From Acidobacteriota bacterium (GTDB lineage: Bacteria; Acidobacteriota; UBA890; WLXD01), in contig CBDFKD010000002.1 of NCBI GenBank assembly GCA_965248695.1, forward strand, positions 5,056,001-5,120,000: a DNA stretch of 64,000 nucleotides, given 5' to 3'. Positions 9,112 through 40,377 of this stretch are shown here, piece by piece; the stretch's first letter is position 1; each line of letters opens with the position of its first letter. Made by a program: the position numbers and the translations under genes. The notes beneath the pieces are model-generated. The model made no database searches. It was not told where the DNA came from and was given only the letters and a program-made list of their open reading frames with translations.

Positions 9112-11742
9112 ATGGCCGAAGCGTCGTCTCCGATGATGCGGCAGTACCATCGCATCAAAGCATCTCATCCCGATGCCATTCTGTTTTTCCGGCTCGGCGA
9201 TTTCTACGAGATGTTCTTCGATGATGCCGAGCTTGCCAGCGGGGTCCTGGATATTACCTTGACCGCTCGCGGCCGCGGTACGGCCAACGAAGCACCGATG
9301 TGCGGCGTCCCTCACCACAGCGCCGACGGCTACCTGGCGCGGTTGCTCGAAGCCGGTCACAAGGTCGCCATCGCCGAGCAGGTGGAAGAGGCGGCAAAGG
9401 CCAAAGGCATGGTGCGTCGCGAGGTCGTGCGTGTGCTGACGCCTGGCACCGTGGTCGAAGAAGATCTGCTCGACAGTCGCCGCAACAACTACGTGATCGC
9501 GGTGAGCGAACCCGGCGATAGGGTGGGCGTCGCGGCTCTGGACGTCTCCACCGGGGAGTTCATCGTTGCCGAGTTCGACGGCGAGAACCGCTTCATGCGC
9601 GCCCGCGAGGAGATCGGGCGCTGGGCACCGAGCGAGATCTGCCACGCCGAGTCGGACAATCCAGCCGCCTGGCTGGTACCCGAGGATCCGAGCCTGCCGA
9701 CGGTGCAGGGAATCCGCACCTGGAGCCCGTTAGCAGACTGGAATTTCGATACGGAGCGCGCTCGAGTAGGGCTGTGTGAGCACTTCGCCGTTGCGACGCT
9801 CGACGGGTTCGACCTCGGCGACTGCGATGCCGGTGTGGCGGCTGCTGGCGCCCTGCTGCGGTACGCCTCGGAGGAGAGTCACAAGGCGCCGTTGGGCCAT
9901 GTTCGATCGATGCGCCGCTATCGCGGTCGCGACGTGCTGCAGCTCGACGATGTCACGCGGCGATCGCTCGAGCTCACCGCGTCGTGGCAGCAGGGCGGGC
10001 GTGAGGGCTCGCTGTTGGCAGTGCTCGATCGGTCGGCGACCGCGATGGGTGGACGCCGGCTGCGACAGTGGCTGCTGCGGCCACTGCGCGATCCACAGTT
10101 GATCGATGCGCGCCTCGAAGTAGTGGACCGTCTGGTGTCAGCCGTGCGATTACGTGACGGTATTCGTGACGCGCTGCGGGCGGTGCATGACCTCGAACGC
10201 CTCACGACGCGGATCACGATCGGCTCGGCCACTCCACGCGACCTGTATGCGCTGCGAACCTCGCTCGAGGCGCTGCCCGCGGTCGTGGACGGGCTCGGTG
10301 AGCTGACAGGCGCGCGGCTAGGCAATGAGTTGGCCGGGCGGCTCGATCGGTGCGAAGACATCGCCCACACCGTGGCCGCCCGTCTGGTGGACGAGCCGCC
10401 TGTCAGCCTCGGCGCTGGCGAGGTGATGCGCGAAGGCTGTGACGCGCAGCTGGATGTGCTGCGGCGCTCGCGGGCGGAGGGCAAAGGGTTCATCGCCTCG
10501 CTCGAGGCGACGGAGCGCGAGCGCACCGGCATCGCGTCGCTCAAGGTGCGTTTCAACAAAGTGTTCGGCTACTTCATCGAGGTGTCCAAGGCGAATCTCG
10601 CCAAGGTTCCGGACAACTACCATCGCAAGCAGACGCTCACCAACGCCGAGCGCTTCATTACTCCGGAGCTCAAGGAATTCGAGGAGACCGTGCTCGGTGC
10701 CGAGGACAAGATTGCGGCACTTGAGCTGGAGCTATTCGGCGCACTGCGACAGGAGATCGGCGCTGAGGCGGAAAGGCTACGGCGCACGGCCGACGTGCTC
10801 GCCAGCCTCGACGCGCTGGCGGCGCTGGCGGATGGTGCCGCGCGAGCCGGATGGGTGCGGCCAGTAGTTGACGATGGGCTCGTCCTGGAGGTTCACGGCG
10901 GGCGGCATCCTGTGGTCGAGGCGTTACAACCCGACGTGCGCTTCACGCCGAACGACGCCTATCTGGACGGCGCCGAGCATCGCATCAAGCTGGTCACCGG
11001 ACCCAACATGGGCGGCAAGTCGACGTACTTGCGCCAGGTTGCGTTGATCGTGATTCTGGCGCAGATGGGGAGCTTCGTCCCGGCCGAGGCGGCTCGTGTC
11101 GGTGTCGTTGATCGAGTGTTCACGCGTGTCGGGGCGAGCGACAATCTGGCACGGGGCGCCTCGACGTTCCTGGTGGAGATGCAGGAAACTGCCAACATCC
11201 TGAACAACGCCACGCCGCGCAGCCTTATCCTGCTCGACGAGGTGGGGCGAGGCACGAGCACCTACGATGGCCTGTCGATTGCGTGGGCGGTGATAGAGCA
11301 TTTGCACGACACTGCCGAGCTCGCCTCACGCACCTTGTTTGCGACTCACTATCACGAGCTGACGGAGCTGGAGGAGCGTCTGGGCGGGCTTACCAACCTG
11401 AGTGTTGCCGTACATGAGTCCGGCGCCGGGGTGGTCTTCTTGCATCGAGTCGAGTCGGGGGCCGCGGACCGATCGTACGGTATCCATGTGGGGCGACTCG
11501 CGGGGCTGCCGTTACCCGTGGTGGCGCGGGCTGAAGAGATTCTCGCGCAGCTCGAAGGACACGAGAAAGGGGTGCCGGAACCTCGGGAAAGCGGGCGTAG
11601 CGCGCCGCAGATGAGCCTCTTCGCGCCGCAGCACCCGCTGACCGACGCGCTGGCCCAGCTGCAGCCGGAATCGATGACGCCGTTGGAGGCGCTGCAACTG
11701 CTGAGTCGCTGGAAGCAGAAGTACGGCGCCGAACCGGATTGA
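9112..11742 (+). CDS. mutS: DNA mismatch repair protein MutS
   Basis: FRLGDFYEMF, TGPNMGGKSTYLRQ, DEVGRGTST, ATHYHEL, SYGIHV, and a C-terminal QMSLF clamp-binding-like motif. Confidence 0.99.
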   Translation: MAEASSPMMRQYHRIKASHPDAILFFRLGDFYEMFFDDAELASGVLDITLTARGRGTANEAPMCGVPHHSADGYLARLLEAGHKVAIAEQVEEAAKAKGMVRREVVRVLTPGTVVEEDLLDSRRNNYVIAVSEPGDRVGVAALDVSTGEFIVAEFDGENRFMRAREEIGRWAPSEICHAESDNPAAWLVPEDPSLPTVQGIRTWSPLADWNFDTERARVGLCEHFAVATLDGFDLGDCDAGVAAAGALLRYASEESHKAPLGHVRSMRRYRGRDVLQLDDVTRRSLELTASWQQGGREGSLLAVLDRSATAMGGRRLRQWLLRPLRDPQLIDARLEVVDRLVSAVRLRDGIRDALRAVHDLERLTTRITIGSATPRDLYALRTSLEALPAVVDGLGELTGARLGNELAGRLDRCEDIAHTVAARLVDEPPVSLGAGEVMREGCDAQLDVLRRSRAEGKGFIASLEATERERTGIASLKVRFNKVFGYFIEVSKANLAKVPDNYHRKQTLTNAERFITPELKEFEETVLGAEDKIAALELELFGALRQEIGAEAERLRRTADVLASLDALAALADGAARAGWVRPVVDDGLVLEVHGGRHPVVEALQPDVRFTPNDAYLDGAEHRIKLVTGPNMGGKSTYLRQVALIVILAQMGSFVPAEAARVGVVDRVFTRVGASDNLARGASTFLVEMQETANILNNATPRSLILLDEVGRGTSTYDGLSIAWAVIEHLHDTAELASRTLFATHYHELTELEERLGGLTNLSVAVHESGAGVVFLHRVESGAADRSYGIHVGRLAGLPLPVVARAEEILAQLEGHEKGVPEPRESGRSAPQMSLFAPQHPLTDALAQLQPESMTPLEALQLLSRWKQKYGAEPD

Positions 11743-15079: not shown

Positions 15080-15558
15080 GCCCCAAGCACAAGCGCACGG
15101 CGTTTGCCGACGCACTGCGGATCATCGGCCTTCGCGATCTGTCGCAGCGTCGACTCCGAGAGAAGCTGTTGGCGCGCGACTACGCCCCGGACGAGGTCGA
15201 TGCCGCGGTGGCGCGTTGTGTCGAGCTCGGCTATGTCAACGATCACTCGTTCGGAGTCGACCGTGCAGGTGCGGTTCTCCGGCGGCGGCCGTGCGGTCGG
15301 TTGGGGCTACAGCGTGACTTGCAGCGACAGGGTCTGCCTCGGACAATGATCAACCGGGTGGTCGATGAGGCCTACGAAGAGGCTGGTGGTGAGCATGCCG
15401 TGCTTGCCGATGCCGTGCGTCGGTGGATAGAGCGTAACGGCGACCCGGTCGATTGGCCGGCCATCCGTCGGTGCTCGACTCACCTTGGGCGGCGTGGTTT
15501 CGCGGGGGGCGACGTCCAAGCGGCGCTTTCCCATTGGTTAGCGGCCTGTAGCAGATGA
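15076..15558 (+). CDS. recX: regulatory protein RecX
   Basis: ALR....RD.S...LREKL, LGYVND..F, G...L..DL.RQG, L.RRGF. It lies before alaS, and the TTG start overlaps the previous stop. Confidence 0.85.
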   Translation: MSPKHKRTAFADALRIIGLRDLSQRRLREKLLARDYAPDEVDAAVARCVELGYVNDHSFGVDRAGAVLRRRPCGRLGLQRDLQRQGLPRTMINRVVDEAYEEAGGEHAVLADAVRRWIERNGDPVDWPAIRRCSTHLGRRGFAGGDVQAALSHWLAACSR

Positions 15559-15559
15559 T
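15538..15559 (+). repeat. solo degenerate copy of the IS630-like terminal repeat
   Basis: TTAGCGGCCTGTAGCAGATGAT matches CTAGTGGCCTGTAACAGATGAT at 19/22 and forms the recX 3' end. Confidence 0.6.
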
Positions 15560-24547: not shown

Positions 24548-24577
24548 CGAGTTGGCTCCGACAAGGGGAGACTAGCT

Positions 24578-24659
24578 GGCCTGCTGGGGCATCGGTGACG
24601 AGGCGCAACCCCGATATCGCCACCAGGATACGCAACGCTCATCTGTTACAGGCCACTAG
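24578..24659. repeat. truncated copy of the pheS-pheT nested element, fused to the dcd stop codon
   Basis: GGCCTGCTGG (inner-type end), then CATCG-GTGACG-A-GGCG-CAACCCCG-ATATCGCC (3' half of the hairpin module), then GGATACGCAACGCTCATCTGTTACAGGCCACTAG (outer TIR). Confidence 0.85.
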
Positions 24660-35838: not shown

Positions 35839-36035
35839 GTCACCCTCTTCGGACTCCAGAGGTGACAGCGCGAGCTCATAAGCGGACTACAGGCGTTCGG
35901 GGCCTCGTGACAGCCGTATCGGGCGAACAGGCGAAGGGCGCGCCGTATTGGTAAGCGGAGGTTAGCCAGCGAGCGTGTGGTGCGCTTGCGCTCCTCCACA
36001 TATGCAGTCGTTATGGCGGGTTACCGTTCGTAGCC

Positions 36036-36696: not shown

Positions 36697-38742
36697 TCAG
36701 CGCCGCGCTGCCCCGACGGTCCGTTCGAGATGATCGACGAGGTGCTCATGGGCAGCCTCGATCTCTTCTGCGGTGAGAGTGCGGTCGTCGGCGCGGTAGG
36801 TCAACCGCAGCGTCGTCGCCAATCTCCCGGCCGGCACATCGTCGCCGCGGTAACGGTCCAGCAAGCGCAGCCCGACCAACGGAATCTCGATCAACGTGGC
36901 GACCTCGTCCGCGATCCGCCCGAAGGCCAGCTGGTCGTCGATGAGGATGGTGACGTCACGCTCGCTTGCCGGGTAGCGGGGCAGGGGATCGATCGAGAAT
37001 CCTGCCGCCTCGTGAGTCAACAGCGTCTCTATGTCGAGCTCGGCGACCCAAACGGCGCCGTCGACACCGAGCAACGTCGCAACCTCGGGGTCGACCTTGC
37101 CGGCTATTCCGCTGGCCAGGGCACCGACGCGTATGCGAGCCGCCGAGCCGGCTTGCAATCCCGGCACGTCGTCGGCAGACCATTCGATCGACGGCCATCG
37201 CATGCGGGTGCGCACGGTCTCCAACGCCCCCTTCAGCTCGCCGAAGCCGGTAGGCTGCTCCGAGGTCATGAAGTGGGCCTCGTCGGCGCTTCCGCTCGCC
37301 ACCAGGGCCAAGGCGCGGCGTTCGCGCGGCGGCGCGCCCTTGACGGCGTGGAACGTCCGGCCGACCTCGAACAGCCGGACGCGCCGGGCACCTCGGTTGC
37401 GGTTGCGCGCCACGGCGTCCAGCAGGCCGGGCAACATGCTTGTCCGCATGACGCCCATGGCTTCGGAGATCGGATTGGTGAGTGCCAGCGGTGTCTCGCG
37501 GTCGAGGAACGGCGCCTGGTCCGCGCCGCTGGTGAACACGAAGGTCATCGCCTCCCAGTAGCCGGCGGCAGCGCAAATGTCCTTGACGCGGCGCTCGTTG
37601 CGAAGCGCGTCGCTGGGACCGCGGCTGTCACGACGTCGTAACAGCGGCAGGGTGGCAGGGAGCTGATCGTAGCCGTGAAAGCGGGCAATCTCCTCGATCA
37701 GGTCCTCCTCGCGCGCGACGTCGACCCGGCGTGCGGGCACCACGATCTCGTAGCCATCATCGAGTGCGCTCACACCGAACCCCAGCGCGCCCAGAATGGC
37801 GCTCACGCGCTCTGCTGGTACCTCGACTCCGAGGTAGCCGCGAAGGCGTCGGGCACTGAGAACCAGGCGCCGATCTTCCGGGAGCGAGCCGACGACGTCG
37901 ATGCTGTCGGTGCTCACGGTGGCGCCGCCGAGCTCAGCGATCAGGTAACAGGCCCGGTTCACCGCTGCCGCAATTCCCTGGGGTGACATATCGCGCTCGA
38001 AACGGTGACTGGCGTCGGTGTGCAGACCCAGGCGCCTGGACATCCGGCGCACCGTGACGGGGTTGAAGTAGGCGCATTCAAGCAGTACCCGCTCGGTGGA
38101 TTCCGTGACCCCGGTATCGATGCCTCCCATGACCCCGGCGAGGCCCACCGCCCGGTTCGGGTCGGCGATCACGAGGTCTTCGGGCGTGAGCTTGCGCTCG
38201 ACTTCGTCGAGTGTGACGACGTGTTCGCCGTCGCGTGCCCAGCGAACGATGAGCTGGCCTTCGGTGAGCTTGTCGAGGTCGTAGGCGTGCATCGGACGTC
38301 CGAGCTCCCACATCACGAAGTTGGTCACGTCTACGACGTTGTTGATCGGTCGCAGGCCGATCGACTCCAATCGCTTGCACATCCACTCCGGGGAGGGGCC
38401 CACGTGGACGTCGAACATCGCCCGGGCGACGAAGCGCGGACACGCGATCTGGTCGTCCACTCGTACCCCGGCCGCGGAGGTGGTCGGTTCGCCCGCAGCA
38501 GCGAACTCGTCGGCCGGCTGTCGCAGATCGGTTCGCAGCGCGATCGCCAGCTCGCGCGCCAGGCCGAAGTGGTTGAGCACGTCGGGGCGGTTGCTCGGCA
38601 GATCCAGGTCCAGGCTCAGGTCGTCGCCTTCGGCGCGGGCATCATCCACCACGAGTCCGAGCATCGAGAGCCGCTCGGACAGAGCTGCGGTGGCCTCTGG
38701 AAGGTTCGCGTAGTCAGCGATCCAATTGCGGGAAAAGCGCAT
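36697..38742 (-). CDS. pheT: phenylalanine--tRNA ligase beta subunit (short form, 681 aa)
   Basis: MRFS.NWI..Y, NRPD...G.ARE, INNVVDVTNFVM, DAS.RFER, R.D...E.DLIEEIAR, NPIS, RD, RTLT. Confidence 0.97.
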   Translation of the reverse strand: MRFSRNWIADYANLPEATAALSERLSMLGLVVDDARAEGDDLSLDLDLPSNRPDVLNHFGLARELAIALRTDLRQPADEFAAAGEPTTSAAGVRVDDQIACPRFVARAMFDVHVGPSPEWMCKRLESIGLRPINNVVDVTNFVMWELGRPMHAYDLDKLTEGQLIVRWARDGEHVVTLDEVERKLTPEDLVIADPNRAVGLAGVMGGIDTGVTESTERVLLECAYFNPVTVRRMSRRLGLHTDASHRFERDMSPQGIAAAVNRACYLIAELGGATVSTDSIDVVGSLPEDRRLVLSARRLRGYLGVEVPAERVSAILGALGFGVSALDDGYEIVVPARRVDVAREEDLIEEIARFHGYDQLPATLPLLRRRDSRGPSDALRNERRVKDICAAAGYWEAMTFVFTSGADQAPFLDRETPLALTNPISEAMGVMRTSMLPGLLDAVARNRNRGARRVRLFEVGRTFHAVKGAPPRERRALALVASGSADEAHFMTSEQPTGFGELKGALETVRTRMRWPSIEWSADDVPGLQAGSAARIRVGALASGIAGKVDPEVATLLGVDGAVWVAELDIETLLTHEAAGFSIDPLPRYPASERDVTILIDDQLAFGRIADEVATLIEIPLVGLRLLDRYRGDDVPAGRLATTLRLTYRADDRTLTAEEIEAAHEHLVDHLERTVGAARR

Positions 38743-39307
38743 CTAGTGGCCTATAACAGATGATCATTGCCTATCGCAGATGGGATTTGCGCGTGAGATC
38801 AAGGCGCGGCGACGCAGTCGATGCTAGCAGGCCGAGGTGAAAGTGTGGTGGGTCTGGTTACGGCGAGTTGGGGCCAGATGCAAGGCGGCCTGACGCACAC
38901 GATGCCCTAGCCATCGTCGAGGAAGGCCAACGCCGCAGATGGCCCCAAATCGCTGTAACCCTTCGGGCGACTGGGGGTTGCGCGCGCAGGCTGCGTCGTT
39001 TGTCGTCAACGATGGGGTAACCATCGCCTCCTCCTCTCTCCTGGCCTGCGCCTCGCAAGACCCTGTCGCCAGACCCACCACACTTTCACCACGGCCTGCT
39101 CGGACATCATCGAGGAGCCGCAACGCCGATATCGCCCGCCATTGCCCATCTGTCCAGAGGCCAATCAGAACAACAGTGGCGAAATGGGGCCGTCTGCTCC
39201 GTTGCTCCTCTCTTGAACTTGGGCGAACATTGTCTCGTCGGATCGCCTGGCTTCCGGGCCCATTTCGTCACCACGATAGGCAACGATCATCTGTTACAGG
39301 CCACTAG
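38743..39307. mobile_element. non-autonomous MITE-like element with IS630-like termini, inserted at the pheS-pheT junction
   Basis: 34-bp inverted repeats at 38743-38776 and 39274-39307 (32/34 identical; CTAGTGGCCTRTAACAGATGATCRTTGCCTATCG). CTAG is present at both ends. No transposase is encoded. Confidence 0.88.
38828..39098. mobile_element. second MITE-like element nested inside the first
   Basis: Inverted repeats at 38826-38857 and 39069-39100 (31/32; AGCAGGCCGWGGTGAAAGTGTGGTGGGTCTGG). Flanked by CTAG (38824-38827) and CTCG (39099-39102). Confidence 0.85.
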
Positions 39308-40377
39308 GAAGCGAACTGGCGCAGGAAGCGCAGATCGTTCTCGTAGTAGTAGCGGATGTCCTCGACGCCGTACCGTACGGCTGCTATGCGGTCGATACCG
39401 AAGCCGAACGCGAAGCCCTGGTATCGCCCGGGCTCATACCCGACGTTTTCGAACAGGACGGGGTGGACCATTCCGGAGCCGAGCAACTCCACCCAGCCGG
39501 AGCCCTTGCAGACCCGACAGCCCGCGCCGCTACACGCCGGACAGGTGGCATCGAGCTCGGCGGAGGGTTCCGTGAAGGGGAAGTACCCCGGCCGGAACCG
39601 GGTCGCTGTCCGCGGACCGAAGAGCGCCTTGGCGAAGGTGTCGAGCGTGCCCTTCAAGTCGGCCAGCGTGATATCGGTGTCGACAACCAGACCTTCGAGC
39701 TGAACGAACATCGGTGTGTGCGTAGCGTCTGGCGTGTCGCGGCGGAAGACCCGTCCCGGAACGATAATGGCGAACGGGGGCTCGTGGGTTTCCATGTACC
39801 GGATCTGGACCGGCGACGTATGGGTGCGCAGCAGCAAGTCGCCGTCCAGGTGAAGCGTGTCCTGTGCGTCTCGCGCCGGATGGTCGGGCGGGAAGTTCAG
39901 CGCTCCGAAGTTGTACCAGTCCGTCTCGATCTCGGGCCCGTCGACCACGTCGTAGCCCATGGCCACGAAGATGCTCTCGATCTCCGCCAACGTGCGTGTG
40001 ATCGGGTGTAGTCCACCGAGCCCGTCGGGTACCGGTGGCTGGGTGACGTCGATCGCTTCGCTACGGGCGCGCTCGGCCGACGCGGCCCGCCGAAGCCGCT
40101 GCTCGAGCTCCTCCAGGGAAGCACCGATTGCCTGCCGCGCACGATTGGCCGCGGCACCAACCTGCCGCTTGGTGTCGGCATCGAGATCCCGCATGCCCTG
40201 AAAGACGGCCGTGAGGCGGCCGCGCTTGCGGCCCAGATAGCGCGCCTGAATCTCTTCTAGCGCGTCGAGCTCCTGTACCTCGGCGCACTCGCGACGGAAC
40301 TCGTCGACGATCGTCTCAACGAGTGCCAGCGGGTCGATGGCGTCGCCCTCGTCGTCGTCCAGCGGGGCGGCCGCCAT
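39304..40377 (-). CDS. pheS: phenylalanine--tRNA ligase alpha subunit
   Basis: HP....L, NF.ALN.P.DHPARD.QDT, LRTHTSPVQ, YFPFTEPSAE, GFAFGFG.DR, ENDLRFL.QF. Confidence 0.99.
   Translation of the reverse strand: MAAAPLDDDEGDAIDPLALVETIVDEFRRECAEVQELDALEEIQARYLGRKRGRLTAVFQGMRDLDADTKRQVGAAANRARQAIGASLEELEQRLRRAASAERARSEAIDVTQPPVPDGLGGLHPITRTLAEIESIFVAMGYDVVDGPEIETDWYNFGALNFPPDHPARDAQDTLHLDGDLLLRTHTSPVQIRYMETHEPPFAIIVPGRVFRRDTPDATHTPMFVQLEGLVVDTDITLADLKGTLDTFAKALFGPRTATRFRPGYFPFTEPSAELDATCPACSGAGCRVCKGSGWVELLGSGMVHPVLFENVGYEPGRYQGFAFGFGIDRIAAVRYGVEDIRYYYENDLRFLRQFAS

Follow-up and report, generated by a model that had tools for sequence, protein, structure and literature searches.

The locus between pheS and pheT of this Acidobacteriota bacterium raises the question of whether a repeated, covarying hairpin in a 565-nt insert is a structured RNA, a protein-binding site or the interior of a miniature transposon. 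The window, i.e. the whole stretch of 64,000 nucleotides analysed, had been described in a first-pass annotation as carrying an outer and an inner copy of this hairpin. Both copies were found (repeat families D1, 38800/38881, and D2, 38912/39105), and 0 of 300 dinucleotide shuffles of the 565-nt insert contained two 24-mer repeats as good as those observed (19/24 and 18/24). As described, the 4-bp stem is changed compensatorily on both sides between the two copies, and the internal-loop strands GACGCA and TCGAGGA are identical in both; the 2 nt after GACGCA differ between cores A and B, and the outer copy has one apical-stem mismatch. The CTAG ends, the terminal inverted repeats (TIR), the nesting and the stop-codon position are additional to that description. 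The features are as follows.

36697..38742, minus strand: pheT, host gene; its ATG lies directly after the element end
39304..40377, minus strand: pheS, host gene, with the insertion target at its stop codon
38743..39307, no strand assigned: composite miniature inverted-repeat element, 565 nt, between pheS and pheT, CTAG at each end
38743..38776, plus strand: left TIR of the outer element; IS630-like, with 13/20 matching an IS630 end and 5/20 an IS5 end
39274..39307, minus strand: right TIR of the outer element, 94% to the left TIR; the pheS stop codon lies within its CTAG
38800..38823, plus strand: 5' half of core A; the end of the element is 57 nt away
39105..39128, plus strand: core A, 3' half, from the repeat comparison and shuffle test
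38824..39102, no strand assigned: inner two-core element, at the CTAG in the apical loop of core A
38824-38857 and 39069-39102, no strand assigned: TIRs of the inner element, of a sequence type different from the outer TIRs
38881..38935, plus strand: core B, intact, 57 nt from its own element end
38959..38967, plus strand: CCCTTCGGG mini-hairpin linker joining the head-to-head cores B and C; it recurs in other two-core elements
38966..39070, minus strand: core C with arms, a degenerate long form (R1 E 0.06)
39176..39271, minus strand: core D with arms, degenerate (R1 E 8e-5)
24572..24659, plus strand: a further element of 88 nt with an internal deletion; each end is a CTAG, and it comprises the 3' half of a core and the right TIR

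At this locus, a two-core element sits inside the apical loop of a second two-core element. The outer element has 34-nt TIRs of 94% identity and carries cores A (plus strand) and D (minus strand); the 279-nt inner element carries cores B (plus strand) and C (minus strand). It begins at a CTAG within core A's apical loop, and where it stops this CTAG recurs with one mismatch. The left arms are 57 nt in both elements. The same head-to-head two-core build is present in L026, L042, L048, L051 and L081, among the matches listed. Two degenerate copies had been proposed on the opposite strand: one was recovered by model R1 at 39183-39264 (24 bits, E 8e-5), while the other, at 38977-39059, is marginal (14.7 bits, E 0.06) and a longer form. 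Similarly, the proposed 3' half near 24590-24621 is seen by BLAST (82% over 44 nt), and R1 gives only E 0.36 near 24548-24627; the 88-nt deleted element at 24572-24659 is placed on the dcd stop codon. As RNA, the 565-nt insert folds with a z of about -14 on either strand, and as DNA it does so on the plus strand. A weak TIR-like 21-mer (18/21) at 15539-15559, overlapping the end of recX, is possibly a relic or a chance match.

Cores A and B of the window are antisense to pheST. The pheS stop codon lies within the right CTAG and the pheT ATG comes directly after the left one, so that removal of the insert leaving one TA would place the pheT start directly after the pheS stop. We speculate that in the pheST mRNA the insert ends (38743-39307, minus strand) would pair and so put the pheS stop beside the pheT start; equally speculatively, the paired insert would hide the pheT initiation region until the ribosome terminates at pheS, and could preserve translational coupling. 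The pheT product has 681 aa and matches the bacterial model from position 158 only, without the N-terminal tRNA-binding part.

Relatives were collected in a single genome scan with a pattern that fixed three blocks only (CAAGGCG, YGAGGA and CAACGCMG) and left all stems and one loop strand free. The scan gave at least 120 matches at at least 119 loci, and an outer inverted repeat, used as an independent filter, was present in 94 of the 120 matches listed; the 26 without it, mostly chance matches in genes and some at contig ends, were dropped. Copies in other genomes, a search for which had been proposed in the first-pass annotation, were found by R1 and the scan, with at least 94 matches having the outer inverted repeat. 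The 94 kept matches span at least 12 phylum-level groups, including Pseudomonadota, Bacteroidota, Bacillota, Planctomycetota and Acidobacteriota, and those closest to the window subtype, among the matches listed, are Acidobacteriota records. Alignment A1 consists of 82 of the 94 together with window core B (83 sequences); four long forms as well as L005, L011, L027, the second L028 match, L034, L076, L078 and L102 were left out.

In A1, 89.4% of cells pair compared with 62.2% after shuffling, which does not correct for relatedness, and 25-45% in slid controls; two-sided changes occur in 21 of 26 pairs. Among the 77 matches listed that have a 4-nt stem, this stem pairs at all four positions in 47 and at two in 22, mostly with a central tandem G·A, and every column pairs better than in all 2000 shuffles. 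On the free loop strand, the C of the central pair is kept in 82 of the 83 A1 rows, and (GA or C)CG-N-AG fits 50 of 77 matches listed. Because the search pattern fixed CAAGGCG, YGAGGA and CAACGCMG, the invariance of these blocks is circular; 14 model hits outside the pattern keep the outer junction and vary widely in the YGAGGA strand. The internal loops of the family are conserved but not invariant, and are of several types. The invariance that had been described therefore holds for the two window copies and is overstated for the family. A kink-turn, of which the consensus is a 3-nt bulge followed by tandem G·A, was rejected: only 39 of 77 relatives among the matches listed are compatible with it, and the window copies have GC where GA is required.

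The simple element, about 165 bp long and bounded by TA on each side, consists of a core of 52-56 nt and arms of 55-57 nt; TIRs are found across the family as in the window. Among the matches listed, 42 of about 86 loci with sufficient flanking sequence have TAG 55-57 nt upstream of the core, compared with a per-position background of 0.4%, and CTA lies 54-56 nt downstream in 41 of 89; 29 TA-ended elements are 160-170 bp long, and the target reconstructed from the elements is CTAG in 22 of these. Two shells carry the matches to IS630 and IS5, i.e. L017 from Pseudomonas, for which the match is to an IS630 element of 1173 bp, at both of its ends, and L025 from Massilia, which matches IS5 ends (18/20) on two plasmids. 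In the IS loci matching L017 and L025, R1 found no core. The feature probably behaves as a MITE that is mobilised by transposases of the IS630 or IS5 type.

Near-identical cores are present in unrelated shells. Over 57 elements, core identity and TIR identity are uncoupled (Spearman 0.04); for instance, L025 and L069 are 94% identical in the variable core and 45% in the TIR. Moreover, both ends of L025 are closer to one IS end than to the other (25-27 versus 19-23 of 34), a pattern that weakly suggests that one IS end was copied across the hairpin. The same TIR types surround interiors without a core in L019 (15357-15483) and near 7185 in L003, 13797 in L066 and 14345 in L072, and therefore shells and cores are modular. 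A further TIR type, with a CTAGAAAC start, encloses cores in L051, L067 and L116.

Plasmid BLAST and TIR seeds searched through the family loci gave no transposase with the window's own TIR, and the seeds gave no autonomous element; plasmid BLAST with the window element, the inner core and the TIR returned chance matches only, and the phage search a single 23-nt match. Likewise, no transposase end was found for shells L072, L082, L100, L081 and L086. As expected of a MITE, which lacks coding capacity, none of 94 peptides without stop codons, taken from the inner window element and 24 family elements, attained an NCBIfam cut-off, and no model of the Rickettsia palindromic elements matched any of these peptides.

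It could be argued that these are ordinary MITEs with a passive interior, in which template switching across the palindrome makes apparent compensatory changes and the loops are kept by descent. TIRs and TA ends, targeting of stop codons and a random set of neighbours are all typical of MITEs. Template switching is able to create such changes, according to the passages of PMC8794818 that we compared. However, such correction should erase the loops, and yet these persist in at least 12 phylum-level groups while arms and TIRs turn over. Moreover, a passive interior predicts neither of two further observations. These came from 58 elements with paired TIRs among the matches listed, in which arm mismatches were read on the core strand; L027 is counted in this set and is probably a false positive. 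Firstly, inner-arm mismatches comprise 168 G·A versus 11 C·T. Secondly, purine-purine mismatches peak about 3, 14-15, 24-25 and 33 nt from the core, i.e. roughly one helical turn apart. We consider a passive interior improbable. In the same 58 elements, G·T and A·C number 164 and 36 in the inner arms, and 76 and 27 in the TIR zone.

The core strand is also the better-folding strand in 57 of the 58 elements with RNA energies and in 56 of 58 with DNA energies, with a gap between strands of -16 kcal/mol and -7 kcal/mol, respectively. In total, we conclude that the interior is selected to fold on one particular strand. Since a double-stranded transposase substrate needs no strand-specific mismatches, something presumably acts on the folded strand. 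The claim that selection acts on structure plus loop sequence is borne out by the covariation in 83 sequences, the conservation of free loop positions and the strand-specific mismatch classes, and for the same reasons the interior is not neutral filler. The wider claim of an ncRNA or protein-binding site rather than neutral MITE filler holds in this respect; it is not supported as regards a stand-alone ncRNA gene, the module lying inside TIR-bounded, TA-flanked miniature transposons.

The active form could well be single-stranded DNA, for which we put the odds slightly short of even; RNA is a serious candidate too, at odds somewhat further below even. A fold selected as host-level RNA, whether as a small RNA or as part of a transcript whose processing or stability it affects, for which ERIC in Yersinia is a reported precedent, would account for the G·U-rich stems, the A-rich bulges and the larger strand gap with RNA energies. 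It would also fit the reported effect of ERIC on mRNA decay through RNase E, as given in passages of reviews, and the sub-threshold matches of ERIC copies, on the core strand, to the Rfam families V_AS5 (E 1e-10), CssrA and Ysr49, which were the only Rfam matches of these copies. By contrast, the elements have no orientation bias to flanking genes (co-directional pairs 12 versus 8; 25 versus 28 loci; naive ORF calls, among the matches listed), among the matches listed none of the 89 apical loops, read on the core strand, is GNRA or C(UNCG)G, no sigma-70-like promoter was found in the window element, and cores A and B are antisense to pheST. The missing orientation bias and these loop counts, together with C-GNA-G loops in 12 of 89 among the matches listed, point towards ssDNA or a role for the element itself. 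Altogether, we regard a host-level RNA as unlikely, and slightly more so than a passive interior.

The TIR-bounded, TA-flanked transposon setting, ends matching IS630 and IS5 and the lack of an Rfam family speak against a stand-alone ncRNA gene. In the Rfam search that had been proposed, a tRNA was the one family of the whole window to reach its gathering score; at the locus there were chance miRNA-type matches only, and on the cores of 20 relatives none. Elsewhere in the window, a gap of about 200 nt (35839-36035) between ORFs that we take from their translations to be zapA-like and rny-like had no Rfam match at E 1. The gap between zapA-like and rny-like genes is often the location of 6S RNA.

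A linked HUH/RAYT-like gene had also been proposed. REP/REPIN-RAYT systems have strand-specific imperfect hairpins and head-to-head doublets, and an element of that kind would move as single-stranded DNA through an HUH (Y1/Y2) transposase recognising the bulged hairpin. The strand-specific bulged hairpin is as expected for such an element, 12 of 89 apical loops on the core strand are C-GNA-G among the matches listed, and a Y2 and a Y1 transposase lie beside cores in L021 and L028, respectively. These are, however, the only two HUH transposases among the 65 neighbouring ORFs scanned of 101 found, and the neighbours are mixed housekeeping genes. Moreover, unlike REP/REPIN-RAYT systems, the elements lack a constant HUH gene and have symmetric TA-flanked TIRs that match DDE-type IS ends, and among the matches listed there is no bias relative to flank GC skew (24 versus 29), a crude proxy for the replication strand. 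HUH-driven movement is therefore very doubtful. In L021, a core with atypical ends (604-684) lies about 120 nt from the gene for an IS91-family Y2 transposase (790-2211).

We favour, with a probability of roughly 70%, that the motif is the conserved core of a non-autonomous miniature-transposon superfamily in which ERIC/IRU is the long-core, short-arm member. The elements would move in trans by IS630- or IS5-type DDE transposases that read the outer 20-30 bp and duplicate TA. The elements prefer CTAG, and TA duplication by these transposases would explain why insertions at TAG stop codons are frequent. We see the folded strand, which contains CAA/AA bulges and tandem G·A loops, as a candidate protein-binding structure that may benefit the spread or tolerance of the element itself, and new shells may arise when an IS end adjoining a core is copied across the hairpin. 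A bolder form of this idea, which we hold only tentatively and think unlikely to be right in full, is that the core is a parasite of IS across bacteria: an ancient, protein-recognised single-stranded structure that repeatedly captures unrelated DDE ends, among them those of IS630 and IS5, through fold-back copying and in this way stays mobile, with ERIC, the Geobacter repeats and many lineage-specific MITEs as its shells.

ERIC (IRU, RU-1) is described in the passages compared of PMC2759123 and PMC2229807 as a 127-bp repeat of enterobacteria and Vibrio. Both ERIC and the elements analysed here are TA-ended, MITE-like long hairpins with a CAAGGCG / CAACGCMG junction on the better-folding strand and a similar G·A loop about 14 nt out. 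In the published consensus, as far as presented in the part of PMC2759123 consulted, both junction blocks can be read by eye on the reverse strand, and all eight ERIC-like copies fold better on the junction-block strand. R1, which was built without ERIC, found four of six ERIC-like plasmid copies at E 0.002 or better and missed two. The shared junction in a strand-biased hairpin on which we base the proposed ERIC-type superfamily is weak for two E. coli K-12 copies, of which R1 gave one at 10 bits (E 1.7) and did not list the other. R1 matches only the outer junction of ERIC, and the inner loops of ERIC did not align to it. ERIC has arms of about 26 nt and a core of about 75 nt, whereas in the elements here a core of 52-56 nt is flanked by arms of 55-57 nt bearing IS-derived TIRs; the host range of these elements is far wider. 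With lengths of 160-170 bp, other termini and a short core, they are not ERIC in the strict sense. V_AS5, CssrA and Ysr49 overlap ERIC-like copies in L128, L130 and L132 and may be ERIC-derived annotations.

The Geobacter metallireducens 'predicted short RNA elements' Gmet_R1001-R1024 are intergenic hairpins of about 113 nt, and many rows of the Gmet_R1001 family in Fig. S1 carry both junction blocks on the reverse strand, as read by eye; this family has a longer core, is given for four Deltaproteobacteria and is linked to neither ERIC nor IS in the passages compared (PMC2700814). IS630-type MITEs such as RUP, and MITEEc1, have TA ends and IS630-matching TIRs and are non-autonomous, like the elements here; the passages compared of PMC2229807 and PMC11602168 report no structured core common to IS families, whereas the core here is also found in IS5 shells. 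By description, the CMfinder motifs lacto-2 and alpha-transposases are also alike: in the part of PMC1950547 compared they are covarying hairpins that occur in many copies and either keep their internal loops or are associated with a transposase. Literature searches and the parts covered of PMC2996986, PMC10969869, PMC3184786, PMC2718517, PMC11602168, PMC2267715, PMC2229807 and PMC1950547, a scope outside which the primary ERIC papers fall, gave no publication in which these families are brought together.

The mobility of ERIC-type repeats and the reason for the persistence of their fold have been open questions since the first description of these repeats, and a 2007 review states that transposase mobility of ERIC was without experimental support (PMC2229807). 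The results tie ERIC to a much wider family and name transposase-shell pairs (IS630/L017 and IS5/L025); because these pairs and the positions under selection are identified, mobility and binding are directly testable. New aspects are how widely the family is distributed, that a constant core sits in exchanged IS shells, that arm length is fixed and that the fold is specific to one strand. An interior conserved from one IS family to another is at odds with the common view of MITEs as internally deleted IS with disposable interiors, and the repeat is common and likely to be re-annotated as novel small RNAs. Among the individual loci, L090 carries three tandem cores in one orientation (50-365), and in L003 a GC-rich REP-like hairpin (10001-10073) lies inside the apical part of a core.
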